NCBI GenBank assembly: GCA_050084515.1
Contig: CM114271.1
Span: forward strand, 9,672,001 to 9,736,000
Direction of reading: 5' to 3'
DNA length: 64,000 nt
From: Blasia pusilla
Lineage: Eukaryota
Shown: positions 1 through 58,238 of the stretch, piece after piece
Layout of the letters: each line of letters starts with the position of its first letter
Numbering within the stretch: the stretch's first letter is position 1
The notes under the pieces: generated by a model
Seen by the model: only the letters and a program-made list of their open reading frames with translations
Told to the model about the DNA's origin: nothing
Database searches by the model: none
Translations under genes and position numbers: made by a program

Positions 1-2709
1 CATGCGTTGGGCAGCTCTTAGTCGAGATGCATCAGACGCCTGCTCCTGAAGATCTCGCTTCTTCTTTGCAAAATCCTTTTTTTTTGCCTCTATTTCTTCG
101 TCAAGTTCTGCCTGAGGGAGGATGCGATCCTTGAACATTATTCTGAAACCTGGGTTTTTTATGGGCTTGTCCCGCATGTCATCAAGCCAAAGTTCAAAAT
201 CTTCAGCACTCTTCATGTTTGCTTCCTCCGGAACTGGCTCTATTCTTTTCAGCTCCGCTTGGAGACCCACGAGCATGGACTTCCCGAGAAGCCGCAACGC
301 GTCCCAAAATGACCATTCACGGAGCAAATGGGAGATCACTAGATCAGAGACACCCGAAGGATGGTGTGCCACCCTCTTTTGGGCCTCTATGCCCTCGAGA
401 CTGATTTTCATCAGTCAGATTCTCCTAAATTTGCTAATTCGAGACAAGGCAAATCAATATACGCGATTGAGAGACACTTTCTCCCCAATCCAACCTTGCG
501 GATCTTCATCCCTCTTCCGCTGGCGCTTGATTATCGCCTTCAGCTCCTTGTAGAAATCGGGGCCAAGTTCGGGGTTGAGAATGGCGATGTAGCGCTGCAT
601 CTTGCTTGCCGTGTACTTTGTAGCTGCAGATACTGTAGCATGGATGAACTTTGCACGCTCAGAGACAGATACTTTCTCCCTCCGCTCCAGCTCCAATGCA
701 ACGCTCTTCTTGGCGGCCTGTATCTTCGACCAGCAAAGGATTATCACGGCTGCATCTTGGGAAATAAACTTATTTGCCCAAGTCTTTTTTTATTTATTTG
801 AGCACCCTTTGCCAGCATCTCATTTTCAAGGGCGTCGCCCAAGAACCCCTTGTACTCTGCCGAGTGCGTCGTTTGCACTTTCTTCACCCGATCGCAATCT
901 TGGATCCAGTGATGGGTGACATTCCCCTCCGATACAATCTTGCACATCCAAACTCAATATTAGAATTTTTGCAAGGTACATGGGTTCCTCCAACCCGTCG
1001 GACTCCTACAGGTCGTCACAGCTCATGGTCGGAATGGAAGCAACGAGCTAAATTTTCCAACCCATCGGAGTCCGACGGATTGCATTGAGATTTGTGATTG
1101 CCCGATTTCAACCCATTGGAGTCCGACGGGTTGTCAGATAATCCGTATTTAGAGAGTGGTTTCGGAGAGAAAAGTGAACATATCAACCCGTCGGAGTCCG
1201 ACAAGTTGCGCAATTTCAATTAAAGCTGCAATTTGACGCCAAAAATATAGCTCCCCTACTTTTGAATGTAACCTGTCGGACTCCGACAAGTTGCTTTCAG
1301 CAAAAAACATCAAAAAACATCCAAAAATAGCTTCGAGTCAAGCAACCCGTCGTTCTCCGATGAGTTGCTTTCTTCAAAAAACATCCAAAAACAACGATGA
1401 GTCGAGCAACTCGTCGGACTCCGACGAGTTGCTTTTGGCCAAAAACATCCTTAACCTATGGTCAGTCGAACAACTTGTCGGACTCCGACGAGTTGCTTCC
1501 GGCCAAAAATATCCTAAACCAGTGATCAATCGAGCAACTTGTCGGAGTCCCACGAGTTGCTTTCGGCCAAAAACATCCTAAACATCCTAAAATGTGCCTC
1601 CAATGAGTTTGGGCACTCCTCTGCAAACTGGTCCACGCCATGAACCTGTGGTTTCCATCCCAGATGAAGAAATACAGGTTCCGCATCCAGCTGAATTCCG
1701 TCCCCTCTATCGCCCTTCTGAATTCCTGATCTCTCATCCTCCAGAATGTGTCGAGCGCTTCCAAGTCCTCCTCCGTAACCAACGCTTGGGTTCCATGGTC
1801 ATCGTAAGGCTGAACATAAAACGGAGGGAAGTTGTCGATGTAGGATGCTGTCGTTGCCGATTGTTTCAGCTTCGCAATATCCTTGTCAGACTAAATTTCG
1901 CGGAGTTACTCCGTAGTTTGCAATCGGAAAAGTGGAATTCTCAGGGCGTTCTGGCCCTCCATTAGTGCCATCTTCTTTACCACTTGTCACAACAGGGACA
2001 AGGTCAATAAGCTACACTGAATTGCCAATGAATTGCAACATGGGCCTTCACATAATTCAAAGAACATAGATCCTCTCTTACCCGCTCGAAGATTGGGTCG
2101 GTGTCTTGGCCAGCCAACTGCTCTGGGACAGCAGCTAGCAAGTCCACTGGAAACTCGTCGATCCGATAGAGGTCGATTTCTTCCGCCGTGCTTTGGGACG
2201 AGGATGACCGCTCTCCTCCTTCTTCAGCGATGTCCACCATCTCCACGCTGGCGATCCTCATGACCTCATCGTCCTCACTTGAACTTCGGACGTTTCCGCT
2301 ATATTGATTGTGTCCCCGGACTTCATCGGGGACATTTCCTGCATCTCAACACTTTCGGTTGGACGGGCAGGGCTTTCTTCAATGGCAATTGCTTTTACCC
2401 TCCGAGCTTTTTCCAATTCTGCTCTCCTCACCGACGCGTCCAAACGCTTCTTTTCACGCTTTTTGTCGGCGATCCTTTTCTTCAAGGCCTGCGACGCCTC
2501 ACCTTTGCGTTCTATTTTTTGAGCGCCTCATTTTCACGTTTTGCAAGAAGCTCTTGCTTGTGCATCTCTGCTTCCCTTTCCCGCTCCTCCATTTCTTGCT
2601 ACCTTATCTTATTGGCCGAACGAGGCCTTGGAGATGGTGACGCAGGAGTCCTCATGGACTTGGGAGTAAAGCTCCCAGCCTTGTTTGCTTGAGATTTTTT
2701 CCTCGTCAT
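1..2709 (-). pseudogene. Gene A, 5' half (coiled coil, ParB/Srx-like domain, helical region), copy 1
   Basis: ORF pieces 2258..2485, 2004..2261, 1462..1782 (NLYFFIWDGNHRFMAW), 744..947 and 454..747; frameshifts and stops relative to other copies. Confidence 0.75.
990..1565. repeat. Cluster of 27-bp palindromes in gene A intron 2
   Basis: Repeated caacccgtcggaNtccgacgggttg variants between the ParB-like exon and the next exon. Confidence 0.9.
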
Positions 2710-2995
2710 TGTTCCCGAAAATTCCTCCTATGGACAAGGAAATTGCTCTCTGTGCGCGATGAATCGGCTCGAGGAATCGCCTTGATGAGTCGCCTTGCTG
2801 ATGTCGCAATGAGTTGCCTTGATGAGTCGCCTGGCTGATGTCACGATGAGTAGCTTGAATCGTCTCGCGATTGTTTGCTTGAATCGTCTCGCAGTGGGTC
2901 GCCGTGTAAAGTGCCCCTTGGTATCTGGTCAGCTGCTGCGCAGAAGAGCAATTGAGATCGCGAAATGAAAAACCAAAAATGAGCGAACCTTCCCC

Positions 2996-3003
2996 TATTT
3001 ATA
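2996..3003 (-). promoter_or_regulatory. Putative TATA box of gene A
   Basis: TATAAATA on minus ~290 bp upstream of the ATG; conserved at 36621-36628 and 63354-63361, and as TATAAAA at 49399 on plus. Confidence 0.6.
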
Positions 3004-3094
3004 CTTTTCGAGCCGTTGGGCTGACCGTTGGGTCGCATCATCCTTCCAACAGCGAGGTGCCGGCCGTTATGGAAGTCTGGACGTGAAAAAAACC

Positions 3095-4090
3095 AACCCG
3101 ACGGTTTCGACAGGTTGCACGCTTCCCGAGGGTTCAAGGCATCCGTCCTCGTGGCAACCCGTCGGAGACCGACAGGTTGCGCGCCTCCGTTGTCTTTGGA
3201 CAAGAACATGAGGTACCCGCACAACTTGTCGGAGACCGACAAGTTGCGCGCCTATGCCGTCTTCGGACAAGAACGCGAGGTACTCGTGCAACCCGTCGGA
3301 TTTCGATGGGTTGCACGCTTCCCTCGTCTTGGGATAACAAGGCAGGCTTCCCGTGCAGCTCGTCGGAAGCCGACAGGTTGCACGCTTCCTTCATGTAAGC
3401 GTTACAAGGCGAGGCACTTGTGCAACCCGTCTGAGGTCGACGGGTTGCGCGTCTCCGCCGTCTTTGGGCAAGAAGGTGCGGCACCCGCGCAACTTGTCCG
3501 AAACAGACGGGTTGCACGCTTCCTTAATGTAAGTGTTACAAGGTGAGGCAATTGGGAAACCCGTTTGAGGTCGATGGGTTGCGTGCCTCCGCCGTCTTTG
3601 GGCAAGAAGGCGCGGAACCCGCGCAACTCGTCGGAGATCGACGGGTTGCACGCTTCCTGCATGTTAGCGTTACAAGGTGAGGCAGAAGTGTGCAACCCAT
3701 CCGAAGTCGACGGGTTGCACGCTTCGCTTATCTTGGGTTAATAGGCAAGGTACCAGGGCAACCCGTCAGTTATCGACAGGTTGCACGCTTTTCTATCCCT
3801 CGGGTAACAATGCGACAACGCATAGTGACGAGGCAACCCATTGCAATCCGACGGGCAAGATCTACCATGAGTTGGAAAATCCTGCAAAAGTCCCCAATGA
3901 TTGGTTGCCTTAGCATATGCAAGCCATATCTTGTGTTTGATGCTAGCAAAATTGACTCAAAAGACCTTTGGTCGGAAAGAAGGGGGTACCAACCCAACGG
4001 ACTCCGACGGGTTCCAACAAGAAGAAGTGCATGCTTCACAACCAACGTCTCTGATTCCCAAATTCTGCAACCCACTTGACTCCGACGGTT
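3095..4090. repeat. Intergenic array of the palindrome, ~57-61 bp period
   Basis: Palindromes separated by ~30-bp linkers related to one another (e.g. gcctccgccgtctttgggcaagaagg). Confidence 0.9.
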
Positions 4091-4255
4091 ACAATAGAAT
4101 TGAATCCATTGTGTCAGACATTTTCAACTACCAAACTTCATTTTGTTAGTCAAATTTTTTCAGGAGAATATGAGTCCCTATTCATTGTAAATTAAACATT
4201 CTCATTCTCATTCTCATACCAATTCTCTGTCTCCTCCCGATGGAATCTTTTGGGA

Positions 4256-6000
4256 ATGGATAATTATGTGAAGCTCACTTGTGGCAGTCATCTAGCGGCC
4301 CTTCCTCAATCAGAAATCGTTCGATCGCAAGCTTGTGAGTCTTTCATAGTAGTGGATGAAAATTTTCTCCCAAATCTTGCATCAAGGAGAATAAGAGGAC
4401 AGAGCATGTCACTCTACTCCAACGCTGCAAGGACAGCAAAACCTTGAAACAGGCCATGGAATGCCAAGAAGAACTTCATGGGTGGTAGTGGAAGCATGCG
4501 ATTGAGGGGAAGTACAAAGAGTTGTGCTCTTGGTTGAGTTGGTGGACTGTACGTATGAGACAATGGGGAAACTTCATGCGGCAGGTGAGTTCACTATTTC
4601 GTCTTGTCAAGCTCACGCTGAGAATTGTTTGAAAAGTTGTAGCTCAACTTGAGAAGCGTGGGCACAATAGGGATTTCAAATCGAAGAAACCAAGCAATTT
4701 GTCGGATGCAACGGGTTGCCCAAGTGTGCAACCCGTCGGAAACGGACGGGTTGCCTGAGTGTGCAACCAGTCGGAAATCGACGTGTTGCATCCAGAATTT
4801 TGGTGCAACCCGTTTACAAGTATGCAAGTCGCATGTATACAAGGCCTGCAAATAGTTTGACACGCATGAGTTTTGGATGACTTGCACTTGGATCTTCCAG
4901 CCCGGAGTGGCCAAACGTTCTTGCAACCCGTCGGAATTGGATGGGTTGCAGTAGGTGTTTCTTGGGTGTTGCAACACGTCGGGACCCGACGGGTTGCAGA
5001 GTCATTCATGGGATGCCTCGGCCTTGCAACCTGTCTGGTTCCGACAGGTAGCTTATTTCTTTGACTTCTGAGCTATTTTCGTTCCCTTCTAACATTGCCG
5101 TCGTTGCAGGGATTGAACATTCATGAAAATGCCCTGTGCCCCAACACAAGTGGAGCAGAAAGTGTTCATTCCTCCTGGAGGTCCTCACAATCATGCCAAC
5201 GAATTTCACTTGTGGAGGCATGCCAACAAGACCAGGCAAGAGCAATGCTCTGATCTGCAAACATCAATATCTTCCTCACAAAAGGCATAACAAAAGGAAG
5301 GGGGCCTTCGATCTACGAGCTCTATGTCAGGGCGGCTGTGAGATCTGGTGATGAAAAACTCTATGTGGAAGCCTTCAACCGGTGCGTAGCAGGAACTCCC
5401 CTCGAGCAAGACGTACACATTGGTGGGGATATTCGTGGGCGTGTTTCAAGACGTCCCATACAGATGGTGGTAGAGCAGTCCGAGCGAGACTCATGGAGAC
5501 CAGATAAGTATCTTGACTTCAGGCAGGTGAAGAGGCAGCAACGAGGAACGAATCCGGTTATTGATTTGGATGAGGAAATTATGCCACCCAGGTATTCGAG
5601 GACCCTGGACCGCTCCCTAATCCGTGATGGAGTTACTTCTCCAAAATCAGTGAATGTTTTATTTCAAAAGCCCTCCGTTGCTGGAAGTTCGCAACATTTG
5701 GTCGGTGGGGTGGTTCAACAATATGGGATTCCGGTAATGGAGGTGGATTGCAATCTAAAATTGTGGCATATATCTTGGAGCAACCTAGGACGTGGACCCA
5801 CTTGCAGGGCAGGATCTGATGGCATTAGGAGAGCATGCGGCACTTTCCTAAATAAGAATCAGACAAGGATCGGGCGACCCTTTGCTGGGTTTTGGGGACT
5901 CAAAACCTTTGATCGTTACACGAGGACCGAGGATCAATTGAAGTACTTCTTCTACCCAAATGAATCTTGCGCTTTCTGGAAGTCTTATCCGGCTGCCACT
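4256..6000 (+). pseudogene. Gene B (MULE transposase), copy 1; ~1.7-kb internal deletion near 4370 removes most of exon 1; 3' truncated
   Basis: Starts MDNYVKLTCG as at 37693 then jumps to KSCIKENKRTEH; intron ~4584-5109; ORF 5338..6003 matches 40473..41273. Confidence 0.75.
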
Positions 6001-10725: not shown

Positions 10726-13181
10726 CGTGATGTATGGAGTGGACGCATGTAGGGACGACATTCCAAAATTTGTGAAGCCTGAAAATTTTTTTGAAGGAGA
10801 TGCAGAGGAGCAAGCCCTCGAGACAGGGGAGTTGGTGGCAAAGGTCATCACTGCCAAAGACAAATCCACGGCGGGTTTGAAAGCAAAGGCGAGGGGATTG
10901 AGGAATTTCAAGGCTGAGTCTTCCAGAAAAGAGGCTGAGTCCTGAAGGCGAGAGGTGGAATTGTTCGGGTGAGCAGGGTGAGAGGGCCGGACCAGGTCCT
11001 CGTCCAAGAAAACTCATGTGGAGTCTGAGGTAAAAGAGACTCCAACAAGCCGACAGCAGACTCGGGAGAAGCGAAAGCGGAAGGCGCCTGGTTCGTCAGA
11101 GGGAGGAGATAAGGATGTGGAATACACTCTATCATCCTTGGGCAAGCATAGGGAAGCTACCACTAGGAAAAATGTCCTTATTCACTTGACTGATCTTGTT
11201 GATGAGCTGCAGAGTTTCAGTTCTCAAGAGTCTACACTTGCCATCGAGAAATTGACTATGCTGGGACTAAAACTCCTTTGAAACGGGCACGCCCTCTGGA
11301 CGGTGCATGGGGTTGTTGAGGAGGTGGTAGTGGACCTCCTCATTGCGGATTTTCCTTCTGGGTTTTTCTTGTGGGATAACAATCAGTCTGGCACTTTTCT
11401 AGACTCGAATGTCCCGCTTTTGTACGACCAGATCGCGATGTTGTTTTCTTTTTCTGACGCGTATCTGAGTGACAGGGGTTGTTTATTGGTCCTCACTGGA
11501 GGGAGCAAAGACAAGCTCTTCAAACTTTTGTGCGTGAAGAGGTTGCTGAAGTGGAGGACGGCGCAATCATGAGTCATTAACAACAAGTATCCACTCATAT
11601 CGGCAACGACTCAAGTCCGGATAAGTCCTCTTTTTCAACGAATTGAATTTGTACAGAAATTCAACCTGTCGGACTCCGACGGGTTGTATCTCTACATGCA
11701 ACCCGTCGGATCCCAATAGCTTGCAAATTCACCTTAGGAACTTTCCTAAGGTCCTTTGCACTTGTGTTTGCGGTGTTGCAATCCGTTTGAAAGCGACAGG
11801 TTGCAAATTCACCAACAAGTCTCCATTGATTGCAACCCGTTGGAACCAGACGGGTTGCAAGTAGCACTAGTTTTCCACATGTTTCAGGAGTGATGCAACC
11901 TTTCTGAAAGCAATGGGTTGCTCTCATATTAGGAACTTCTCAACACTGAACAATTGTATTTAGTTGTAAGCCAACCATCAAACTCTGACAGATAGAGGTT
12001 CTGTTCAACAAAATGAACAACATGTCGGCTTCCAACCTGTTGCTCATAGCCAAAGAATCCACTTAGAGTTGTAAAACAACCCGTGGGACTCCGACGGGTT
12101 GCTCTTCTGTCAAGCCTATAGTCTAAGTTCAGAAGGATTGGTAATCACTATGGACTAGTAGGACGGGTTGAAAAGCAACCCGTTGGACTCTGACAGGTTG
12201 CTCCTCTCCCTAGCCAAATGAGCAACCCGTCGGATCCCGACGGGTTGCACATTGTGTCACTATATTGAGAGTAGACCAGCGGTCTACTAGATTTTTCTTT
12301 TTGCTGACATTATTTTCCACTTGCTTGTTCACACATGGACCACTCATTTGTCTACTGCTTCGTAAGGCCCGAGCACAACTTCCAAGTGTTCCAGATCCAG
12401 GATCCAGTGGATCCATGCTCCAATGGGTACAGCTTAGATAGTCTCTACAAATCCCCCCCACCGGAATTTTCATGCAGGAAGGGACTCCCTTACTTGGAGG
12501 AAGGGAGAAGTCACCAACCTTGATGCAAACACTCATCGAGCTCTGCTTGAAGCCAGGTGACTTGGTCTTTGACTTAGTGGGCCTATCAGGGGTGAGTATT
12601 AGAGGCGTCTGGCAGAGTGGCAGGAACATTCTCTAACTTGAGGGAAGGCCATAACTTTTTGAACCTTTGCAAAGAGGCGAATGCGGATTACGAGAGGCTA
12701 GTGGGAGTATACAAATCTCCTCCAAAGCCAACAGCTCCAATTCTAGAGCCACCATTGATAGTGACACAATCGTCACTTCCTACTATTCAAAAAATCGGGA
12801 GTCTCCGACATTAATTTTAGAAGAGCTATCGGACGATGACGAGTGAGTTCAAAGATTTATTGGACCGAGCTTGATTGAAGCGTTTTGGAGTAGGGATTTC
12901 GTGCTTTCCAAGGACGGAGCACATATTGATACTAGATGGGTGTCACCTTGCAAAGCATACAAGATTTATTGTTGAGGAAGGCGTTAGGACTCAAATCATG
13001 TTACATGGGACCGTTATGGTGTATCTAGGGGGCAAGGCTCTCAAATTCCCCAATATTTACAATCCCCATCTACAATCGGCCAGAGGAGCCACTTGTATCC
13101 CAAGACATTCCTTTTGTACAAAAACCTAGGAGAGTTAGGAGTAAATTTGTAGATGACAAGGTTGAAGAAATCATAGAATAG
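10726..13181 (+). pseudogene. Gene A, 3' half (beta-class DNA methyltransferase-like), copy 2
   Basis: VDLLIADFPSG and DAYLSDRGCLLV (11303..11572); after a palindrome-rich intron (~11620-12334), EKSPTLMQTLIELCLKPGDLVFDLVGLSG. Confidence 0.7.
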
Positions 13182-14383
13182 ATCAAATGTACATTTCCAA
13201 GCTTCCTTCGGATGTAATAAAGGACTTGGCTGCTTGAGTGATCCCACTCTTTTCCTGTTAGGCCAACTTTTCATGCATTCTAGCAGGTTGCTTCACTTTT
13301 GCCTCGTTCCCCCATTATCGTCACACCATTCTTCTCTAACACGGTATTCCATAGACGTGTTGGATTCCTACTACCTTTTGGATTCTCATGTCGGATTCCC
13401 AACCTGTCGGATTCTCATGGGGTGCAGGGCGGAATGGAATCACTTTTCAAGATCATTCTTTTGTTGTGGTGTGCTTGCTTGCAAGGGGTGTAACCCATCG
13501 TATTCCGACGGGTTGCAAGAGTTGCAACCTGTCGGATTCTGACGGGTTGGAAGGGGTGCAACCTATCGGATTCCAACATTTAGGGTCTGAATGAAGGGAC
13601 ATGGGTGCATCAATTCTCTTTACTCCTGACAACTATCAACCTTTTGCTTCAATTGTCCTCTCAATTTGATCACATTTTCTTCTTGATGCATGCATTTCTC
13701 AGTGGCTAAGAGAATGGTGAAACCAAGTTATCAAACGCACAGCACTCCATGGTATACTTTATGCATCCATTCATGAGCCAACATCATCCAATGTTGTCAT
13801 GAAAGTCTTTGGCTACCATCACTGATGAGTGATTTGTTCTGTTGTGGAAAACCCCCTCATGGATGAGTATTGATTGGATGGGATATTTAATGCCTTTTGC
13901 ATGAAGAGTCAAAAATCCATAATGTCAACCACATCTTCAAAGAAGTTAAACCTTGAAGGGCATAGGAGTCTATTCAGACCATAGTTAGAGTCTTTATTTG
14001 AACCTTTCATTGAGATAAAATTGCTACTTCTGGTCAAATTATCTACAGATGGTCCTCCAACAATAATAACCCCCTCTGCCCGACTTACTGCAGAGCTGGC
14101 TTAGACACGCAATGTGAAGAAAATTGGGCTCACATGGAGAGTCATGGAAGGATGTTTGTAGTGGTCTTATGATGTCTACTTGTTTTTCCAAGCCTGGAAA
14201 AAGAAGGTTACTTTAGGCCCGAATGTGATCCACTTGCTACTCTCTTCTAAAGATTTCATGAATTTGAAAGCAAACAAAAATTTCAAAAATGTCAAAAAGT
14301 TTTGAAGAGAGGAGGCAGATTCTGCCCTTTTGTTTAAGAGAGACTCTCCTCTCTTACTCGCTCCTGCCAGAATACCAGCCCCC
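10726..14383 (+). mobile_element. Mutator-like element copy 2: 3' half of gene A plus right terminus
   Basis: Colinear with 52556-56126; ends ...cctgccagaataccagccccc. Confidence 0.8.
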
Positions 14384-15786: not shown

Positions 15787-16200
15787 TGGAGGCGTGGTAA
15801 GAGGAGAGGAAGAGAGGAGAGAGGAAACTACCTTCAACCCAAAGAGACACAATTTTTTGAAGAGAGCTTCTTGTGGTTTGAAGAGAATTTATGTTGGGTT
15901 GAAGAGAGGAAGTTTTTTTTATGAAAATTTTTGCACTTTTTTTCTCTATGCTTAGTCACTCCCACAAATTGGTTTTTTTCTCTTCCACAATCTAGCAACC
16001 CGTCTAAATCCGACGGGTTGCAACTTGCACAAAAGAAAAAGAAAACTGAAAATTTATTGGATTCACAAATGTGGAAAAATTTACTTTTTCCATCCAAGGT
16101 CTGAAAAAAAATCATCATTTTTCCACAAGGGATTAGAGTTCGAGCTCATAGTGAACATTTTTGCACTTCAAAGTACATTCTAAGACCTCATTTTGCATCC

Positions 16201-19200
16201 TCAAAGTGGTTTGTTTAAGATACTTTGTACTTCTTTGAGGGACAAAATAAGTCGGTGGATTTCTACTCCTACCTCCGACTCTCTTAAAACTACAAGCAAT
16301 AGATAGTTCATGTGCTTACAAGGGAAATACCTTTTCCCACTTGTCTCTCTTTGGACAAAGTCATCATAGGAACATATAGGAAAGCAACATATGTGTACCA
16401 CATACACCCCTGTCAAACTTGAATTCATAGTGTTGTTCCTCACCCAATACATCCTTCCTATTTCATTGGCACTATGAACTTCTTTTGTGGCAATGATTTC
16501 TATATTTCCCTCCCGAGCTGATGCGATTCTCTCTACTCTCTCCACCGTTGGCCTACACATTCTATTTTTCTTCACCCCATTTCTTGACTCGAACATAAAT
16601 AGTGGGTTGAGGTCATCCACCTTCTCCGAGTATATGTTGACATCAATCTTGGGTTGAATCCCAAATGCAAAAGTCTCTGTAATGCGAACATGCTTCGAAC
16701 TCCTTCCGTCTATGAGTCTGAAACCACCAATTGTAAGATTGTACACTTCCTCTTGAGTGCAATTGGTACCTACAGCAATGGGTCAAATTGTGGGGCTATT
16801 CCCTGGAGCTCCAATGGAAGCCGAATAAGACTTTTGGAAAGTGCATGATTCATTTGGGCATAATAAGTACTTCAATTGATCCCCAACTCTGGTAAAACGA
16901 TCAAAGGTTTTCAACTCCCTAAAGCCAGACAATGGTCGTCCTGTCCTTGTACAGTTCTTATTCAAGAAAGTGTCATATGCTCTCCTAATGCCATCCGATT
17001 GTGCCCTCCAAGTGGGTCCACATATGGAGTTCCTTCGAGAAATATATGTCTGCTTGAGGTTGCAATCAACCTCAATGATCGGAATCCCATACTGTTGAAC
17101 TACCCTTCAGACTGTTTGGTTGGAAGTTCCAGCAATAGAGGGATTTTGAAATAAAACATTCAGTGCTTTTGCAGAAGGTACTTCAACTCAAATTTGGGAG
17201 CAGTTTGGTGTCTCTGAATACCTGGGCGGGGTAATTTCAACATCCAAATCAATTACCAAATTCTTTCCTCGATGTTGAGGCTTGACTTGCATGAAGTCAC
17301 TATACTTATAAAGTCTCTAAGAGTCTCGTTCAGATTGTTCTACTACCATCTCTATGGGATGTCTCGAAACACGCCCACGAATGTCCCTACCAATGTGGAC
17401 GTCTTTCTCGAGAGGAGTTTGAGCTATGCACCGATCGAAGGCTTCCACATACAATTTCTCATCTCTAGATCTAACAACGGCTCTAACACAGAGCTCATAA
17501 ATTGAAGGGCCCTTTCCCTTGGTTACACCTTTTGTGAGGAAGATGTGGGATGGTACAGATTGTAGCATTGCTCTTGCCTGGTCTTGTTGGCATGCCTCAA
17601 AAAGAGATATTTTTTGACATGTTTGTGATGACCTTCAAGAGGAATGGACAACCTTGGCTCCACTTATGTTGTGCAAGAGGGCATTTTTGTGAATGTTAAG
17701 TCCCTACATAAGAAATTTTTTCAATTGATGGACGGAACGCCCAAGGGTTCAATGCTTGCAACCTATCAGAATCCGATGGGTTGCAAGCAACAAATCATTT
17801 TAGAAAAAAGTAGAAAAGCATTTTAGAAAAAAGCCGCTTGCAACCTGTTGACAAGCAACAAAACATTTTCGATAAAAGCCGCTTGCAACCCGTTCCCAAA
17901 CGACTTTTCTCTGGCAATGTTCTTGCAACCCCTTAGAATCCGATGGGTTGCAATATGATTTTTTTTGTAGAATGTAACTTCCAACCCTTCGGAATCTGAC
18001 AGGTTGCAAGATTATTTTTTCTCACAAAAAGTTACTTGCAACGTGTCAGATTCCGACAAGTTGCAAGATGAACTTTTTTCGCAAAACATTCGTTCACAAC
18101 CCGTCAGATTGCAACGGGTTACAAGCCGCCAGATTCAAACAGTCCGCAATCTAATGCAACCTGTCGGTTCCGACTGGTTGCTTTAACTACCTATTTTGCA
18201 ACCTGTATGCTTCTGACGGGTTGCAACCTCACACTTGGACCACATACTCACCTGCCGCATAAAGTTTTCCCATTGCCTCATACGGATGGTCCACCAACTG
18301 AGCCATGAACACAACTCTTTGTATTTTCCCTCAATCGCATGCTTTCTTCACCACACATGAAGAAATAATTTACGCAATAAGTTCCTGAAGCTTTCTGGAT
18401 CAGCCAAGAATGCAAGATTATCCCACGGTTGCTTCTCCTCGGTTGCGGTGATCTCCCTTTGGCCAGGGATACCTTGAAGTTGTTCACAAATTTGTGATGC
18501 AGTTGTCAATTTGATCACTCCGGGCTTTGATCCTGGAGAGTTTTTGTACACCTCGACCACCTTCTTTGCCACATCCTCCTTGATGTGTCTCTGAATTGCA
18601 CCCGTGACAGGATGAGTACGAGACCCAACATCAATTTCCATCCTTGTGTACTCGGACATAGAATTGTAGTCGTGCACTATGAAAAAAATATAAACCGAAC
18701 ACTCTCTAACAAAGAAAGGGGAGGCTTGACAATGCGGACATCGATGGCCACCCGACAGTATGGTTGAACCCACGGCGTAAGGAGTTTCTGCATTTTTGGG
18801 AGGGAATTGGGAAGTATTCACGACTCTATTCCCCTCGAGGAAGGGGCATCTTGGACTTCTGCACTCTAAGGCTCCAACACATTGGCGACGGAACAAAATC
18901 CAAGGACCACATGGGATTGAAGCACTTGTTCGATACAGTCGGCACCATCAATGGCAGTTGGATTTTTGGTCCATACCCTTCAAGTGTACTCCATCTTTCT
19001 TCTGAGTAGGACTGACAAGTGGAGGCAGCTCAAAAATGCAATTTCCATCATACGTTGTTGGCAGCTCATCCACGATAATGTGCTTGAACTGTTTCAAGGG
19101 AAGAGAAGAAAGCAAAGAATTCCCCAAGACTCGAAGCAGGAATGAGTAAGAAGATGTTGGGTATGAAGTATTTCCAACAAATCTTGTGAGATTGAAGACA

Positions 19201-19627
19201 TCCGAAATGTCCATAGCTTCAACCGCGATATTCCGAGCTTGTGAAATTGGAGTTGATGCTGAATCGGCCAAAGCAGCCGTGCCGAATGTGGAGCATGGAG
19301 AACTTGAAGGTTTCAGACCGTCTTCATGAGTTGCAATGGTGATCAGAGGTAGGCCATAAACTCTGAATTGTCCATTGGAGTAGGGTAAGAGGTTCCACAC
19401 TTTGGAGCCTCCAATTTCCAGTTGGACTCTTTCACCAATGGCATCATCCGTTCCATCAACTTTGACATCCTTGGATACAAAGATAGTTCCAATCTAGAGA
19501 AGAAATCGGAGTGAAAGGAAATGTTCTTCAACAATTACATGAATGTCACCGGTTGCGCTCAAATTATCTTCGATTGAGGAAGGCACGCTAGATGACTTCC
19601 ACATGTGAGCATCACATAATTTTCCAT
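16201..19627 (-). pseudogene. Gene B (MULE transposase), copy 3, most of the DDE core deleted
   Basis: SWIM-like ICSYDDF..FPCKHM (16201..16746); Cys/His domain 18348..18896; deletion junction near 18360; palindrome-rich intron ~17720-18252. Confidence 0.75.
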
Positions 19628-20749
19628 TTGGGTTAGACCGAGAATGATTTCCTAGATAGAGGAATAAGAATGAGAATGTTGAATTTATAGTCAACAATGT
19701 CTGTTTAAATTATGATAGAATATGTCTGACATGTAGTTGGTAGTTAGGTTGAACCATCGTCAGGTGACTGGACCTACCAAAAAGGAATATTTTGACATCT
19801 TGGTTCATGACTAGTGGGAAAGGATTTTCCAGGCTTCCTTCAACCTGTGGGAGCCGGACGCGTTGGAAGGTAGACCCAAGGGGAACTCCAACCCGTCGAA
19901 GTCCGACAGATTGGAAACCCTCGAGAGGGATGTCGAAGGAACAAACCCTAAGCCCTAAATGCAATTCGACGAGTTGAATTGAGTTTGGATTCTCTCTGGT
20001 CATATTCCATGGGAAAGATCTGCCAAGGGTCCTTCAACATGTTGGAGTCTGACAGATTGCAAAATGAACCGACTCCGACCGGTTGCACGGGGTCCATCCT
20101 ACCCAATTCTTGCAACCCGTCAAACCTTGACGCGTTGCACGGGGTCCATCCACCCTAGGTCCCGTGCAACCCGTCAGACTCCGACGGGTTGAAGGAACTG
20201 GGCAAGATGAATGGTGCATGTGCAACCCGTCGGACTCTGACGGGTTCCACGAGACCTAGGCTGGATGGACTCCGTGCAACCCGTCAGGGTTTGACGGGTT
20301 GCAGGAATTGGGCAGGATGGACCCCGTGCAACCCGTCGGAGTGCGACGGGTTGCAGGTAGAGTCCCGGGTGTACCGCCCAAGCGGTGGAGTTGCAACCCG
20401 TCGCGCTCCGATGGGTTGCAGGCAGCCCAAGTTGAACATGGACCATAATGGTCCACCGTTGCACCAACGGTCGAGTCTAACGGCACTGAAAGTATATAAT
20501 GACCAGTCTCGAGCCTTTTCACTTTTCCATTCTACAGTTTTTCCGCGGTGCTTTCAACTCCCCTATTCACACAACTATGAAAATTGGCTTACCAATTACT
20601 CGGAAATTTCAATGGTTGGTCGTTGTCTCATCATTTGTAGGCTACAAAAGTCGGTGGCGATGGTTCAAATTGAATCGATTATTTTCAGAGATAACGATGA
20701 TTCAAGTCAAAATCCCTTGTGCAACGTTTGATTGTCAACTTATTTCATG

Positions 20750-23700
20750 ATGACTCAAAAAAATTCCCAAGCCAGCAAGGTCGTGAGCTTCTCTCTCAAG
20801 CCAAGTGGAACTCCATTTTCTGGTATGGGACGCACGGCCACAGATTTTCGGCGAGAGAAAATTGAGGAGCGCGAGCGAGAAACCGAGATGAGGAAGCAAG
20901 AAATGTTGCCGAAACTAGCTCCGGAGAAGCTTGCAAAGCAAGAGGAGAAGCAAGAAGCAAAAATGCTTGCGGATGGGGAGAAGGCCAAGAAGAAACACAT
21001 GGATGCCGCCTTCCAGAAAGCCGAATTGGCAAAAGCAGGGAAGGAAAAGGCAATGGCTGCAGAAGAAGAACCCGCCCAGCGACCCATCGAGAGTGTGGAA
21101 ATAGGGGATGTCTCATCCATGAGTTCTAGCGGTCCAATGCAGGAGACCAATACCAATTAGCTTCCAGAGATCAACGAGGAAGCTGTTAGAACCCCGAGTG
21201 TCGAGATCATGGAGATCTTGGAAGGAGAAGAGTCTTCTTCATCTCATATGCCTGTTGAAGAATTCAACCTCTTTGCAATTGAAGAGTTTCTAGTAGACTT
21301 GTCAGATGAGGCTCATGAGGAGCTCGCTAGACTTGACACCGACCCATTTTTCGACTAGGTAAGCATTATTGAACAATTCTCTCTACATTGCATTACTTCC
21401 AGTCGTTCTGAAAATTGGAATTGACAATGGTGATATTCACGCAAGTGGTGAAGCAAATGGCATTGGTGGATGGCTTGAATGCCCCGAGGATTCCTCTCTC
21501 CCGACTCCAAAGGATGGAATACATCCAAGAAATCCAATCGGAGGAAGACATTGACAAGTTGAAGCAATCTGTGGCAACAACTTCATACGTTGATAGCTTC
21601 CCACCTTTCTATGTTCAACCATATGATGAGCATGGAACCCAAGCTTTGGTAACAGAGGAAGAGATGGAGAGTCTGGATGCTTTTTGGAGGCTAAGGGATT
21701 TGGAGTTCCGTAAGGCAGTGGCAAGAACCCAGTACAAGTGGATGCAAAACTTGTACTTCTTCATCTGGGATGGCAACCACCGATTCATGGCATGGTCGCA
21801 ATTTGCAACGGAGTGACCAAACTCCCTTGAGACTCACTTCTGCGTTAAGGTGGTGGTCCTCCGTCCCTACCCGAATCATATGGCTACGGTGGAGATGGTC
21901 ATGCACTCCATGAACACGTACGTATCCTCAAAAAAATTTCCGGAATAAGAACCAGCTTCAACCCGCCGCACTTCGATAAGTTGGTTCTTAGCAATAATCG
22001 TTAACGATAGCAGCAACCCGTCCGAAGGCGACGGGTTGCAATAGGAAGAACTCGCCGCCGTATCTGCAATCCGCTCGACTCCGATGGATTCCTTTTGGCT
22101 CTCTATTGAGTTTCCTGGAAACCCGTTAGAGTCTGATGGGTTGCACAATCTCAAGTGCAGCCATCCCAATAGGACAGGCCTTGCAACCCATTGGAGTCAG
22201 ACGGGTTGCAGATTCAAGAGGAGAGGAAAAGGCAGGTTTGAGTTGCCAATCATGCAACCCGTCGGACTTTCCGGATCTTTACGGAATGAATCTTGGTTGC
22301 GGTGGATGTGCAACTTGTCGGTCTCCGACGGGTTCCAAAGGCATGCAAAGCCAGACCTTCCATTAAGAACATGCAACCCGTCAGACTCCGACGGGTTGTA
22401 GGGCCACTCAAACTCGGCTGTCGGAACTACAATTTTTGCAACCCATCAAAGTCCGACAGGTTGCAAGAGGTCCCTCCTCTTCCAACCCATCGCACTCCAA
22501 CGGGTTGTAGGGCCACTCAAAATCGGCTATGGGAACTACAGTTTGTGCAACCCATCAGACTCCGACGGATCGGAAGAGGAGGGACTTCTTGCAACCCGTC
22601 GAACTCTGACAGGTTGCAAGAGAAAAAACTTGCCTCAAAATCCTCAATACGGATGCAAACATAATACCTAGTGTGGGTGGCTTTGCAACCCATCGTACTC
22701 CGACAGGTTGCCACCCAACCCGGATGCAACTTGTCGATTTCTGACGGATTGCATCAAGGAAGCTTTTGGAGCAACTTGTCGGACTCCAATGGGTTGCAAA
22801 CAGCTGTCATTTTGCTCGTCTTCTTCCAACCCGTCGGAAATTGACAGGTTGCTAGTCAAAGTGTTCTTACTTCTCATTTATGTTTGCAGCATTGTGTCGG
22901 AAGGGAATGTTACCCATCACTGGATCCATGAATGCGGCCGAGTGAGGAAGATTCTTACAATGCACCCGTGGTAATACAAAGGATTCCTTGGAGAGGATTT
23001 GGTGGATGAGATGCTCGCAAAAGGAGCACAAATAAAAAAGAAGACACTCACTCGTCATCATTCGATAGCTCCTCCAGAATCACCCGTGGCATTGCCCTTC
23101 CAAATTTTGGGATCACTGGTAGTAAGGATGACGTCACAACCATTGGCTCTAGTGCAGGTTCATTGATCTATGCAAGCAACTTGTAAACGCCCATCACCCT
23201 CTCGTAGTCAGACTTTGCCTCCTGGCAAAGTTCAAACAATGTGTTCCGAGACTCAAGACGGAGAATGTTTTGGCCACTCTGCCAAGCAGCTCTAACACTT
23301 GCCCCAGAAAGACCCACCAAATTGAGTACCAAATCACCTGGCCTCGAACACTGCTCCATCAGAGTTTGCATGAGTGTGGGTGATTTTTCCCTCCCTCCAA
23401 GCAGTGGCACTCCTTCCTCGACGAAGATTCTTGGGGGTGAATTGGACACGCTGTTAAGAGTGAATCCATCTGCACCCAGATCAATAGGATCTTGTACCTC
23501 AAAAATCTTGAACCTGTGCTCTGGTTTGACAAAACAATAGACGTAAGAGGATTTGATCTGCAATGAATAGATTCGTAAAAATCAGCTAAGAATCGATGGG
23601 AGGAAGAGATTTTCCAGGAGCAACCCGTCGGGTTGCAAATGTCAGATGTTATCGAGGCAATTTTCATTTAGGGGGCGATGCAACCCGTCAAATTTAGACG

Positions 23701-25690
23701 GGTTGCTCACCAACCGTGGATGTGCAACCCATCAAGTTCCAATGGGTTGCACATGCCGTGGCAAGGTCCATTTGCAACCCGTCAAAATCCGACGGGTTGC
23801 TCGACACAACCCAAAACGTGACGAGTGGGCGATGCAACCCGTTGGACTCCGACGTGTTGTACAAAGCCTGCTAGGGTCAATCTACAACCCGTCGGAGTCC
23901 GGCGGCTTGCAGGACCCACTCCCTTTCTGGGGTGTGTTGAGCAACCCGTCGGAGTCCGATGGGTTGCAGGAAAAAATGAAATCCACGATGCAGGAAAAAA
24001 AGAAAACACTTGCATAAGTTTTTCAAACTTACCAATACTTGGTTTGTAGCCGACCTTAGCGGGTAGTCGTTCTTCACTACCCAAGACAAGACAGTTTGCC
24101 ACTTCAACGATCGCTTCACGCAATGCAAGTTGAAGACCTCATCCTCGCTACCTCCGGTGAGAACAAGGAAACATCACGTGTCACTCAGATACGCATTGGC
24201 AAAGGAGAACATCAAAGCAATTTGGTCATATGTGAAGTGAATGTTCCAATCCAGGACTGTGTCGCGTGGGTTCTCTACCCACAATATAAGCCTCAACATC
24301 CCCTTTGAAGTACTCCTCTGTCTTGAAAATGTTTGGGATGTCCTCCTTGCCAATAGCTAGCGCATTATATAAGTCTCGCATTGTTAGACCAGTTAGCTCA
24401 TCGTGGTCGTTGAGGTCCAGCCAGATTGGAGAGTTCAACACTTCCCAAGGGCTCATGTCAAGCGCCATCTCCACGTCGTACATGGAGAATCCTTCGCCAT
24501 CCGGAGTATCTGCCCATAGTTTCAGCGCCACCGGAAACTTCCTCCATCTTCGTGCGTTCACATAGGAGGTCAAAAATTTGAACACCATCCTATGCACGGC
24601 TTGATGGCAAGATGAATCGATAGCTTGATCTTGAATCTCCTTGTTCTTTTTTTGCGAAGTACCATTTCTTCGGGTCGCCAATCTCCTTGACGACATCCCC
24701 AAGTGGCAGAATCTCGCTCTTGAACATCGTCTTGAACGCGGGGTTCTTCGCTGGCTTATCCCGGATGTTGTTCAACCATAATTCGTACTCCTCTTCCAAA
24801 TCAAGGCTAGCCTCCTCTCAAATTGGCTGAATTCTGTGTAGGTCGGCTTGAAGGCACTCAATCATCGACTTTCCTGGCCAACACATTCATTTCCCAAGAT
24901 GCAGTTGTTATGATTCTTTGCTGGTCGATCGAAAAATCGAGGTGGAAAAAAGAAGTGCGACACTGGAGCTACAGAGACGAGGGAATATTTTGGCTTCTGA
25001 GAAAGCAAAGTTCATTCAGGCTGCGGTATCGGCGGCCACCGGCTACCTTGCCAACAAGATGCAATGGTACATGGCCTTCCTCAACCCCGAGCTTAGGCCT
25101 CAAGTTTACAAGGAGTTGAAGGCCATAATCAAGCGGCAACAAAAGACGGACGAGGATCCCCATGGACGGATTATAGAGAAGGTGTCTTTGGATAGAGTTC
25201 ACCGCTTCGCCTTCTCGTGGATTTCAGAATTCAGGTAGATCCGGCTGATGAAGATCAATCTAGAGGGAAGGAGGCAGAGAAAAAATTGCCACACCATCCC
25301 CCTGGGATGTCGGACCCAGTTATTTCCCATTGGCTACAAGAATGGTCCTTTTGGGATGCCTTGCGCTTGCTGGTGCCTCAAATTTCAAGCATTTTGGAGT
25401 TGACTTATGTTGGTTCTTGGGGAAGGAGCAAATATTGATATCCATGGATTTTTGTTTGCAGAAGCTTCAAAATCAGCTCTTGGGGCAGGTGTTGGGACTC
25501 TTCATGGGTCACATGGGACCGATACAGGGTTCCTAGGGGGACAAGGATCTTGGATCCTCCTTCCTTCTCAATTCCAATCTACAATCATGCAGAGGAGCCT
25601 CTGACTAGCCCTGAGAAGTTTCTTGTAGAGGAATCGGCAAGAGTTAGGAACATTTTTGTAGATGACGAGGCTGAAGAGATCATCGACTAG
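20750..25690 (+). pseudogene. Gene A, copy 3, with an inverted and relocated segment at ~23047-24875
   Basis: Coiled coil 20732..21160; ParB-like 21415..21816; methyltransferase exon on the minus strand (23168..23563, EKSPTLMQTLMEQCSRPGDLVLNLVGLSG). Confidence 0.75.
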
Positions 25691-26589
25691 ATTTTCTTGT
25701 TCATGAAATCAGATGTAAATAACCAATTTGCGAATGGTTTTAAATAAAGTGGAAATTTTTTTACGCACCCAATTCTCTTCACGCTTATGGTCTGATCTTA
25801 TTTTCAATCACATTCCAAAATTGGGGTGAGGCTTTTCTCCTTTTACAATCCGTAAAAAACCGATGGGTTGCCTAATGTCTATTCACATTTTCATTTTTCT
25901 TGAAAATAGATTTTCAAATTTACATTTTGACCGATGTTCTTTCATTGTACCAATACCAATTTGTTTCCCTCGATTCTTTTGGTGTGGTGTGTTTGCTTTC
26001 CTGAACTCTAATCTTCACTTCGAGAGGTTGGTAACCCGTCTGATTCAAAAAGGTTGAGAACCACTCCAATTGAACAGTAGAATTGGTTTTTGCAAATAGT
26101 CCAATCTTGCAACCCATTGGAGTCCGACAAGTTGCAAGATAATCTAAACTAGAGACAATATAGTCTTGCAACCCGTCGGATTCTGATAGGTTGCATGTCT
26201 GAATGAATGGACCTGGCTGCTTATCAATCTCCCTCTTCACTACTCATGGCTACAAACCTGTTGCTTCCATTGTCCACTTAGTCCTTCCTTGCAAGTTTTC
26301 TTATTGATGCATACATTTCCCAGTGGTTGAGAGAATGGTGAAACCAAGTTGTCAAACGCACAGTAGTCCATGGTAGACTCCACATACCCATTCATGAGCC
26401 AACATATTTAACTAAATCAAAGCCTCCGAGTTTTCAAGAACCCTACACTTTGATCAAAGACTGTCATCAAAGTCCTCGGCTACGCACAATGGTCAGTGTT
26501 CGGTTTTGTTGTGGAAAATCCCATCTGATGGAATAGTATTGATCGGATGCTTTACCCAATTGGAATCTCCAATAAACATTACAGGACTC

Positions 26590-28000
26590 CAATGCAACAA
26601 CTTTGGGCAATGAATCAAGGGTATTGAATGTGTTGAAAATTTATGGTATGACTAGCTTTGCAATATTAGCATATACTCTTGCTCGGTGTGTTGTGAATTT
26701 AGTGGAGGAGACCAAGTAGTGACTAGAGCTTCCAGTCTCAGAGATAGAGTTTGTACTTCAGGCCATAGACCATGTGCCTTATGATGTTGGTGTACTTGAA
26801 CTCTTCATCACACCATCTATTATACCTGATTGGGATCCCCTCGGGGAATCCTAGAAGACATTACTTACCAGTATAGCAGCTTTGGGCAATCAATCCATGG
26901 TATTGAATGCGTTGAAGAATTCTGGTGTGACCAGCTTGGCTATATCAACATATGCTCTTGCTCTATGTGTTCTGGATTTTGTGCATCAAACCAAGTAGTG
27001 ACCAATGCACAAGATTATAGTTGAGTTCCATCTTGGTTTACTTCTGGTTCAAGGGGATACAAGCCGTCCTAAGCAAGGGCTTCCCCACAAAATGTTTCTT
27101 CAATTCTGCTTGTTGTGGATTTACCCTCCAGAGATTGAGATCATACATTTTTATGCCTTCCTCCATTTTTTTCTGTTGTGATCATTTTCTCACCACTTTG
27201 GTAATGGTATTCAAAAAATCCTTTCTCATCTTTCTCTCACAGTGCAGACCCTGCTCGGTTAATGGTTTCCTGCACAACCGAGCTTCCAGATAGATAGAGA
27301 GAGAGTAGGCTATTGAATGTGTTGAACAGTGGTAGTGTCACAAACTTAGCAATATTAGCATATGAGCTTGCTTTGTGTGTTTTGAATTTTTTGCAAGAGA
27401 GACTGTACTCATTAAGTAATGTCTGTCGTAACTTTGCGACCATATACCCCCAACACACATTACTTACCTGTGTAGCAGCTTTGGGTAATGACTAAAGGCT
27501 ATTGAATGTGTTGAACAATTCTAGTGTAACCAACTTTGCAATATCTGCATATGTTGTTGCTATGTGCTCCCCAAAATTAGTACTTCAGTTCTTCTTGTTC
27601 TAGATATAGAGTGAATAGAGAGAGATCAGACATTTTCAAGCCTTCCTCCGTGTTGCTATGTTGTGATCATTTTTCCACTACTTTGGTAATGGTATCTATG
27701 ATAGTTCAAGCGTCTTGGGCATGCTGGTCTTGTCCTTGGACCATTCTTCTATGAATTTTTTCAAAACATCATTGTCCAGCTTCAACTCCTCAGTTCAGCC
27801 CTCCCACTAGCAGCAACCGAGCTTCCAGCCTTAGTTTCGGGAGAGACTGTAATAATTAAGTCTTATGTGACCTTAGTATTGCCTTATGTGATCAAGTAGG
27901 CTCTGAATATGGTGAAAAATTATGGTGTGTTACTAAACTCGGTTTGTGCATATAGGCTAGTGAATGTGTTGAAAAGTTTTGGTGTTACCAAAACTTGTCA
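26590..28000 (-). repeat. Degenerate repeats, possibly duplicated exons of an unknown gene
   Basis: tattgaatgtgttgaa...gcaatattagcatat recurs at ~26620, 26900, 27310, 27500 and 27960; minus strand reads YANIAK.V....FNTFN.L, followed by gtaagt donors in two units. Confidence 0.5.
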
Positions 28001-28195
28001 GGATAAATCTTATTGCACATGCTGGCATCTTATTTGTGTTGGGTGTATTGAAGGAGACCATAGGGAAGTGATTGTCCTATTGGAGGCCATTTGATTTGAC
28101 CACTAGTGGATTGCTAGACCTTTTTGCGCATCATAGAGAGTCATCTTGGGTGACTCTTCTCTGCCGTGAGTAAGAATTGCGCACACACATACACA

Positions 28196-28909: not shown

Positions 28910-29393
28910 GATGCAAGAGAGACTTTAACGTCAATTGATGTAGCAAGTTTGGACACTAGATTTTGGGAGTTAGGATTGAGGATTTAGAAGAAAATGTTTG
29001 CCCCGTGGTGGATTTAAACGCAATATCTTAAATTAAGGAGGTGACATCAATGTGTATACTCCTATGGCGTCCAAAATGCTATAACCTCTTGCAAAGAATT
29101 GCTTTGGATCTGATCAATGGTGTTGTATTCTCTATTGTGGTTTGTATAACAGGTTCCTGTGTGTATCCCCATAGTTTCCAATGTTGACTTGTACTATAGC
29201 TAGTATCAGATTGGTTGAATAGAGGGGTGAAGGAGAGAATGATGAGCCTATTTTTGTCTTAGGTTACTTAGATGGGCAGACATTAGCGGATCTGCGTCTG
29301 AAATATTATGCAATTGTGGAATTTTATTTTGATTTCTGGGACTTCCGGCTCCCTGGTAGAACGCATCGGAATGCATAGAAGGTAATTCTGCTG

Positions 29394-31508: not shown

Positions 31509-31509
31509 G

Positions 31510-42790: not shown

Positions 42791-42829
42791 TGGGTGTAGT
42801 ATCCAAGGGTGTCATCGTAGCACTCCCCG

Positions 42830-58113: not shown

Positions 58114-58238
58114 TGTGCATGTTATAGTGTGAAGTCATTTTCTGAGCTTATGATAGGCTAGTTTTGGGAGGGGATAGGTTGGGGGGATGACGGCTTGGCT
58201 ATATGAGCATCATGCCCATACTGAGGTTCAATTCATCT

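Follow-up and report, generated by a model that had tools for sequence, protein, structure and literature searches.

A CpG-rich 27-bp palindrome arrayed in the non-coding DNA of a putative Mutator-like transposon family of Blasia pusilla: a candidate clustered binding site

We analysed a 64,000-nucleotide stretch of the Blasia pusilla genome (contig CM114271.1 of assembly GCA_050084515.1, positions 9,672,001 to 9,736,000 of the forward strand; hereafter the window), in which a 27-bp palindrome recurs throughout the non-coding parts of a DNA transposon family. The window is eukaryotic repeat-rich DNA, with spliceosomal-type intron borders, four CCCTAAA units resembling the plant-type telomere repeat, and gag and zinc-knuckle open reading frames (ORFs) of long terminal repeat (LTR) retrotransposons. 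Comparison of the window with itself revealed at least six whole or partial copies of one transposon family of about 12 kb:

1-6000, plus strand: copy 1
10734-14383, minus strand: copy 6
15787-26450, minus strand: copy 5, a divergent subfamily
31515-42165, plus strand: copy 2
56140-46313, resuming at 42516-42166 past an LTR-retrotransposon insertion, minus strand: copy 3
58239-64000, plus strand: copy 4

The element carries two divergently oriented genes, which we call gene A and the transposase gene, and in both of them the differences between copies are in excess at third codon positions. Between copies 2 and 3 the differences at the first, second and third positions number 93/68/171 in gene A and 21/13/35, 18/14/35 and 47/41/90 in the transposase ORFs. 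The copies are decayed by in-frame stops and frameshifts, and the coding DNA of copy 5 is about 20% different from that of copy 2. In copy 2 the genes lie as follows, all intron borders except those of the transposase intron being placed from the codon-position signal and the ORFs:

32454-36140, minus strand: gene A; coding blocks 36140-35145, 34549-33134 (with one in-frame stop) and 32876-32454, and a further stretch at about 32100-31797
37700-41744, plus strand: transposase gene, frameshifted; coding blocks at about 37700-39700, 40243-41270 and 41300-41744

The palindrome has the pattern GCAACCCGTCGGA-N-TCCGACGGGTTGC. With up to three mismatches it matches the window 62 times and 100 dinucleotide-preserving shuffles not once; with up to seven mismatches among the 26 specified bases there are 146 matches, against none in each of three shuffles. 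The original prediction, which spoke of a 27-bp palindrome in well over 100 copies, is thus borne out. Not one of the 146 is a perfect copy of the consensus, and the best five carry a single mismatch. Each site consists of two inverted 10-bp outer arms (GCAACCCGTC) around a 7-base centre, 27 bp in total, and is CpG-rich, with four CpG per site. The register of the two halves is strict: for 75 of 109 left half-sites (up to two mismatches) the next right half-site starts exactly 14 bases on, and for only one does it start at 13. At the CAAC and GTTG positions 136-145 of the 146 palindromes agree with the consensus, and at the GGA/TCC positions 102-120 do, whereas the central position is random (the four bases occur 34, 35, 45 and 32 times). 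The outer CAAC/GTTG and the overall length are therefore better kept than the centre, as had been proposed. An extension to TGCAAC..GTTGCA, described earlier as frequent, is real but partial: T is found at position -14 in 90 of the 146 palindromes and A at +14 in 88, exact TGCAAC-N17-GTTGCA occurs 33 times and exact GCAAC-N17-GTTGC 70 times.

The distribution of the palindrome is sharply restricted. All 146 lie inside the six family copies (50.7 kb), at about 2.9 per kb of element, and none in the other 13.3 kb, LTR-retrotransposon pieces included; single 10-bp half-sites (up to one mismatch) number 209 inside the copies and 2 outside. The palindromes form 32 clusters, which occupy the same compartments in each copy, and the probability that all clusters would fall in family copies by chance is about 6e-4. 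In copy 2, none of the 32 palindromes lies in the 6.3 kb of coding segments and all are in the 4.3 kb of non-coding DNA. The statement that exons and other transposons are free of the motif holds for these coding segments and for the DNA outside the family. The occupied compartments are two gene A introns (one between the first two coding blocks, the other near the 3' end), the transposase intron, the intergenic spacer and a few places in the end regions, the largest and densest arrays being those in the spacer between the two divergent genes. As to the compartments named in the original prediction, the introns and the intergenic region stand, but "subterminal" is only loosely true. In each of the three copies whose left end is preserved, some 820-850 bp separate this end from the first palindrome; the right end, preserved in two copies, has in both of them a single palindrome about 220 bp away. 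The arrays are the following:

990-1560: copy 1, gene A intron; 9 palindromes, 64 bp period at the regular end; homologous to copy 2 34563-35139
3095-4090: copy 1, intergenic array with gene A (minus) on one side and the transposase gene (plus) on the other; 12 palindromes, two alternating linker types; homologous to copy 2 36716-37451
4728-5052: copy 1, transposase-gene intron; 5 palindromes; homologous to 39489-39873 and 40055-41133 of copy 2
11661-12248: copy 6 (minus), counterpart of the gene A 3' intron; 9 palindromes; homology of 10734-12047 to 52566-53816
13399-13550: copy 6, left-end non-coding; 3 palindromes, about 850-970 bp from the left end
17758-18224: copy 5 (minus), transposase-gene intron; 6 palindromes, linkers unrelated to copy 2
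19840-20419: copy 5, intergenic array; 9 palindromes, period of the regular part 52-56 bp and not 67, linkers unrelated to copy 2
22013-22852: copy 5, gene A intron; 14 palindromes at periods of 41-65 bp, interrupted once by 94 and once by 127 bp
23680-23967: copy 5, rearranged or nested family fragment; 6 palindromes
25845-26194: copy 5, left-end non-coding; 4 palindromes
32163-32413: copy 2, gene A 3' intron; 5 palindromes, flanked by coding 32454-32876 and about 31797-32100
34550-35152: copy 2, gene A intron; 10 palindromes repeating every 64 bp, flanked by coding 35145-36140 and 33134-34549
36718-37412: copy 2, intergenic array; 10 palindromes and one with a 1-base deletion, period 67 bp
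39847-40184: copy 2, intron of the transposase gene (donor CAG|GTGAGT at about 39700, acceptor at about 40242); 6 palindromes
41926-41952: copy 2, single palindrome about 220 bp from the right end
42198-42343: copy 3 (minus), transposase-intron fragment abutting the right end of copy 2; 3 palindromes
48444-49307: copy 3 (minus), intergenic array; 9 palindromes, period 67 bp
50953-51359: copy 3, gene A intron; 6 palindromes
53473-53911: copy 3, gene A 3' intron; 7 palindromes
54961-55306: copy 3, left-end non-coding; 4 palindromes, the one closest to the left end about 850 bp away from it
59053-60411: copy 4, left non-coding; 5 palindromes (59066, 59137, 59745, 59815, 60398)
63451-63542: copy 4, start of the intergenic array; 2 palindromes, rearrangement break at 63553

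In the intergenic array of copy 1 (3095-4090), 11 of the 12 palindromes belong to an array with a period of 66-75 bp at 3167-3846 and one lies at 4002; Tandem Repeats Finder reports periods of 67 and 134. The 67-bp intergenic arrays (36718-37412, 3154-3790 and 48854-49307) also have a higher-order period of 134-200 bp, in which two or three linker types alternate. Since these linker types align without gaps, they go back to one unit from which they diverged, the palindrome remaining unchanged.

Arrays of this kind might be functionless minisatellites, in which a palindromic unit was duplicated by hairpin-aided slippage in DNA that tolerates it. The arrays are indeed tandem, and their periods and copy numbers vary between copies. 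As single-stranded DNA the palindromes are predicted to form stable hairpins (-10.6 to -16.2 kcal/mol), which could promote slippage, and two rearrangement breakpoints lie at or in arrays. Inserted copies, moreover, decay freely, and about half of the changes (282 of 571 deviations from the consensus) are of the deamination type, 206 of them CpG-type and 76 CHG-type. Neutral units, however, should diverge evenly along their length, whereas here the arms are far better kept than the linkers and centres of the same units. When the 27 units that make up the 67-bp arrays in copies 1, 2 and 3 are compared in pairs, the mean identity is 0.886 in the outer arms (non-CpG positions), 0.573 in the central 7 columns and 0.589 in the linker (non-CpG). 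Comparisons between copies give the same picture: copies 2 and 1 differ at 13.4% of arm positions (non-CpG), 11.2% of coding, 19.5% of other non-coding and 31.5% of centre positions, and the corresponding values for copies 2 and 3 are 15.5%, 17.0%, 24.8% and 37.5%. When the class of each position was assigned from a third copy, which lowers the consensus-selection bias without removing it, copies 2 and 3 differed at 31 of 221 arm positions against 301 of 1021 other non-coding positions (Fisher p 1e-6), that is, 14.0% and 29.5%, with coding DNA at 20.6%. In other words, the outer arms are kept to much the same degree as coding DNA, and the centre and the linkers are not.

The divergent subfamily provides a further comparison. 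All six copies, copy 5 among them, share one consensus without a difference at any of the 26 specified positions, and yet at three homologous arrays of copies 5 and 2 the linkers and periods bear no resemblance to each other. This persistence of one consensus among unrelated linkers is the strongest single argument for constraint. It is found in at least five arrays as well as in the divergent subfamily, and the 27-bp length never drifts; both are hard to reconcile with neutral minisatellites, which we consider quite unlikely. The proposal that the motif is maintained by selection, and is not a neutral satellite, is accordingly supported, the half-site spacing also being invariant. The CpG-free outer CAAC/GTTG look best kept because decay is largely of the CpG/CHG type. 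Taken together, these patterns suggest that the arms were held constant in the lineages that went on transposing, and that copies once inserted decay like methylated DNA.

What is conserved could be either the sequence itself or the ability of the arms to pair. In the latter case secondary structure would matter, with DNA cruciforms or RNA hairpins affecting replication, recombination, splicing or small-RNA production. The strong predicted hairpins are in line with this, as are the location of many sites in transcribed introns and a centre that varies as a loop would. Selection maintaining hairpins should, however, leave an excess of compensating changes, and we found none: symmetric double changes number 37, compared with 31.3 +/- 4.8 in 2000 shuffles, and 445 changes break the symmetry on one arm only. 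We therefore rejected hairpin-maintaining selection; it is the sequence that is conserved, not the pairing. Furthermore, both arms keep one sequence across arrays and subfamilies, although a constraint on pairing alone would permit drift, which indicates that the sequence is being read. A search of the window against Rfam gave no family match, and a 13-bp stem is short for Dicer-type processing. A structural role of the palindrome is thus, in our opinion, very improbable.

Conservation of sequence, as opposed to complementarity, fits sequence-specific recognition of two half-sites and hence a dimer, and a fixed half-site distance combined with variable centre bases is the signature expected of two identical subunits on two half-sites. 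Our favoured interpretation, to which we would give somewhat less than an even chance, is therefore that the palindromes may be clustered binding sites for a dimeric DNA-binding protein encoded by the element and acting in self-regulation or anti-silencing. According to this scheme, the protein would read the two inverted 10-bp half-sites as a dimer, with the 7-base centre setting their distance and its sequence mattering less. The sites, about 30-40 per element, would have been multiplied by tandem duplication of site-plus-linker units and would fill the DNA that is free to vary, namely the two gene A introns, the transposase intron, the intergenic spacer and a few places near the ends. With sites so densely clustered, a factor encoded by the element could recognise cognate copies alone and switch them on or relieve their silencing, in the manner demonstrated for VANC (VANDAL elements) and TnpA (Spm elements). 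Given their mostly internal position and their highest density between the genes, self-recognition for gene control would be the most likely job of the sites. We infer protein binding, the dimeric state, the identity of the binder and the effect of binding from these patterns. The original prediction is supported in part, as regards constraint on the motif, and the candidate binders are the gene A product, the transposase and a host factor. The presence of four CpG in each site further suggests that methylation could gate binding.

The same sites might instead bind the transposase and aid transposition itself, by building a synaptic complex or by raising the local transposase concentration, like the subterminal repeats of foldback Mutator elements or Spm. 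There is a precedent in Muta1, whose nine 12-bp subterminal repeats enhance binding by the transposase as well as cleavage and excision, and in which a palindromic motif at the terminus is important for binding (PMC5499845). The transposase here is Mutator/IS256-like, an N-terminal Cys/His region is conserved in its homologs, and in the two copies that retain the right end a site is found about 220 bp away from it. Most sites, though, are internal, with the densest arrays between and inside the genes; none is found within about 820 bp of the left end in three copies and only one near the right end. The terminal inverted repeat, moreover, is a different, GA-rich sequence without a half-site. 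It matches the window six times against 0.46 expected, oriented as left and right ends should be:

42109-42122, minus strand: GA-rich terminal inverted-repeat motif at the right end of copy 2, no palindrome half-site inside
14344-14357, minus strand: GA-rich terminal motif
15808-15821, plus strand: GA-rich terminal motif
56103-56116, minus strand: GA-rich terminal motif
58265-58278, plus strand: GA-rich terminal motif

The inverted similarity of the termini is limited to this GA-rich stretch of about 20-40 bp, and no copy in the window has both ends. Of the traits of subterminal repeats, a conserved core with varying linkers is present, and concentration in the terminal few hundred bases is absent. 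Because the sites are mostly internal, a role in end recognition by the transposase is doubtful, and we regard accessory transposition sites, the chief alternative to our favoured reading, as an unlikely explanation. Ends that carry a different GA-rich repeat, the densest array in the intergenic region and a layout like that of VANC21 sites (see below) point towards gene control or anti-silencing, and not towards end recognition.

Several observations weigh against binding by an element-encoded regulator. All of the evidence comes from one 64-kb window, and the 146 palindromes were selected by their likeness to the consensus, which inflates their apparent conservation. Alignments within arrays may pair units that are not orthologous. 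With classes assigned from a third copy, the difference between copies 2 and 1 is not significant (36 of 231 arm positions against 196 of 978, p 0.14). Divergence as fast as in the linkers, which had been named in advance as refuting selection, is nevertheless not what is seen within the arrays (arm identity of 0.886 as given above). In the youngest pair, copies 2 and 4, the arms are not conserved at all (6 of 38 against a background of 74 of 956), which suggests that copies decay after insertion, largely by CpG/CHG deamination-type changes. Profile searches against Pfam and NCBIfam found no recognisable DNA-binding domain in gene A. Finally, the motifs of the VANC proteins are built differently and change fast: those quoted are 8-9 bases long and asymmetric (YAGTATTAY, AGTTGTCC), and they differ between related families (PMC5735166).

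Gene A, the first candidate for a regulator, is poorly connected to known proteins. None of its ORFs matches a Pfam family at an E-value of 0.01 or better, and its 303-aa ORF has no homologs. One exon has three distant homologs, which share with it an invariant FIWDGNHRF-AW stretch; it is found at four places:

61914-62351, minus strand: gene A exon with FIWDGNHRF-AW
35169-35522, minus strand: the same exon
21412-21816, plus strand: the same exon
1462-1890, minus strand: the same exon

We take this stretch to resemble the DGxHR signature of the ParB/sulfiredoxin fold, to which profile and fold tests lent no support. In Pfam the exon hits only DUF1015 at E 0.031, below the cut-off, ParB_N is present in 11% of one protein atlas cluster, NCBIfam and the PDB sequences hold nothing relevant, and a poor structure model (predicted local distance difference test, pLDDT, of 52) found no match in a fold search. 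One could imagine a hitherto undescribed kind of self-recognition in which the gene A protein, with its DGNHR-type motif, is dimeric on parS-like palindromes and spreads from them over the element's non-coding DNA to keep it active, with a site code that stays constant longer than the VANC and TnpA codes, but we hold this to be a distinctly long shot. Bacterial ParB-parS systems do share with our arrays the clusters of palindromic sites and the fixed half-site spacing.

The transposase is better placed, although Pfam yielded no family for any of its ORFs in the window or for the 15 homologs scanned. Its ORF 38927-39601 has 59 homologs in a library of 1.84 billion proteins (best E 2e-30), and tblastn places the homologs at 38331-39757. 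Their alignment contains conserved W.MFD, GFMAD and RER..FHW blocks, which may correspond to the Mutator signature (acidic residues and C/D-x2-H), besides the N-terminal Cys/His region. The longest homolog (P0014, 574 residues) was modelled with a pLDDT of 77-97 over residues 310-510, and the top four PDB matches in a fold search with this model are the ISCth4 transposase (E 2.6e-4 to 2.7e-3, probability 0.99-1.00), Hermes ranking eighth; the TM-scores of these matches are low (0.14-0.26), the whole 574-residue model having been used. ISCth4 is described as an IS256-family enzyme, a bacterial relative of Mutator elements (PMC7780238). A protein atlas pointed to MULE and ZSWIM RNaseH-like clusters (0.94, as a lead only), and a SWIM finger further downstream matches at E 0.013, below the cut-off. 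The transposase profile found nothing among PDB sequences, and the 295-aa ORF of the gene has no homologs among longer proteins. We thus treat the element as a divergent Mutator-like transposon whose transposase is, judging by its predicted fold, Mutator/IS256-like. Independently of the palindrome, the family encoded at 38292-39757 (plus strand) together with its homologs (P0001-P0059) appears to be a Mutator/IS256-like lineage for which there is no profile.

A host protein might also read the palindrome, for instance a transcription factor, an insulator protein or a protein that reads methylation, and the element would have gathered the site in order to borrow host regulation. The CpG-richness of the motif and its position at a likely bidirectional promoter would suit such a protein, and neither element protein has a proven DNA-binding domain for the palindrome. 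Against it, the motif is exclusive to the family within the window, and a specific palindrome of 20 bp would be unusually long for a host factor site. The host-factor idea accordingly seems to us to have little chance of being correct.

An element-encoded regulator acting on clusters of its own motif, as we favour, would not be without parallel. In Arabidopsis, chromatin immunoprecipitation and electrophoretic mobility shift assays have shown that VANC21 binds to a Mutator-type element in its introns, its intergenic DNA and its terminal non-coding regions, and the motifs accumulate as dynamic tandem repeats (PMC5735166; PMC10398659). The VANC/VANDAL system is like ours in several respects: a Mutator-kind element with an accessory gene, clusters in introns, intergenic and terminal non-coding DNA, tandem repeats that vary in copy number and a motif exclusive to the family (PMC5735166; PMC10398659). 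In contrast to the short VANC motifs, the present site is a 27-bp palindrome of two 10-bp half-sites, and it is identical in a subfamily that is about 20% diverged in coding DNA. For TnpA, dense motif clusters, and not single motifs, give family-specific targeting (bioRxiv 10.64898/2026.08.24.746577). The similarity to TnpA/Spm lies in dense clusters of a single motif, which there are recognised by an element-encoded regulator (bioRxiv 10.64898/2026.08.24.746577). Here the density is about 2.9 sites per kb of element. The Spm motifs (CCVTCGCAAA), however, are concentrated at the element termini, while the sites here are mostly internal (bioRxiv 10.64898/2026.08.24.746577). Spm is also a CACTA element, and in the window we found no Pfam CACTA transposase domain, the fold match being to IS256. 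The same work indicates that a Mutator transposase (AtMu1) alone can activate cognate copies (bioRxiv 10.64898/2026.08.24.746577). Muta1 belongs to the same transposase superfamily and has a repeated short site with variable linkers, to which the differences between its two ends are confined, and a palindromic pattern involved in binding (PMC5499845). Its sites differ in being direct repeats of 12 bp with 3-4 bp between them, all within a 145-bp terminal inverted repeat (PMC5499845), whereas ours are palindromes 34-134 bp apart that extend over about 10 kb and do not occur in the terminal repeat.

Systems of this kind are already known from the VANC and TnpA clusters. What is new here is a long CpG-rich palindrome with a code that is unchanged between subfamilies, as well as a transposase lineage that escapes Pfam and an accessory gene of no recognisable family. 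Literature term searches turned up no descriptions of such arrays, and the family may already be catalogued in repeat databases. String searches of the literature with either 12-base half of the motif returned only Corynebacterium and zebrafish matches, unrelated as far as their titles and abstracts go. The exact consensus was found at no locus in metagenome scans. A looser scan with a free 7-base centre gave six loci, each with one isolated palindrome and no second copy; four of the six have 59-65% G+C, and we took all six as unrelated hairpins, not as relatives.

Element-encoded factors acting on dense clusters of their own motif have recently been recognised as a way of escaping silencing while sparing the host, and this picture rests mainly on VANDAL and Spm of Arabidopsis. 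The present family would add to it a long CpG-rich palindromic site, a transposase lineage unrecognised by Pfam and a site code unchanged across subfamilies. The 27-bp site and its two candidate binders make a testable pair, which bears on specificity and on binding switched by methylation. If, on the other hand, the motif proves functionless, the family would show that most of a large transposon's non-coding DNA can consist of tandem arrays seeded by a palindrome.

A few other features of the window are worth recording. We considered whether the palindrome could be a small mobile insert and rejected this, since none of 73 palindromes spanned by between-copy alignments coincides with a gap of 15 or more columns, a weak test in that BLAST pieces may break at such places. 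Breakpoints of rearrangements and deletions between copies lie at or inside palindrome arrays (63553 and 32189-32616): copy 4 has an inverted junction at 63553, and a separate 425-bp deletion begins at a palindrome edge (32189-32616). Copy 1 has lost most of the transposase gene by an internal deletion (4369/4370, equivalent to 37806/39489 of copy 2). In copy 2, the telomere-type CCCTAAA units lie at 31770-31799, exactly where about 309 bp of copy 4 (59738-60047) are missing, and the homology to copy 4 resumes on both sides of them (31515-31772 and 31797-32191).

An apparent 223-bp inverted repeat (39674-39896 and 42294-42516) looked at first like a nested element, but it is actually an exon-intron junction of copy 3 facing copy 2, at the point where copy 3 resumes past the retrotransposon insertion. 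This 3.8-kb retrotransposon-like insertion (42517-46312) interrupts the last bases of the copy 3 transposase exon. Read on the minus strand it starts with TG and ends with CA, and it is flanked by a 4-5 bp duplication (AATG). Its minus-strand ORFs include one with a sub-threshold match to a C2H2 zinc finger, and an aspartic-protease-like motif is visible by eye. Outside the family, a complete 231-aa ORF from ATG to stop (29625-30320, plus strand) encodes paired Cys and His residues and matches no Pfam family, and there are no palindromes in its vicinity. The ratio of observed to expected CpG is 0.35 in the non-family stretch 26451-31514 and 0.26 in 56141-58238, compared with 0.52-0.89 in the transposon copies, which suggests that the low-CpG stretches are older or more heavily deaminated.

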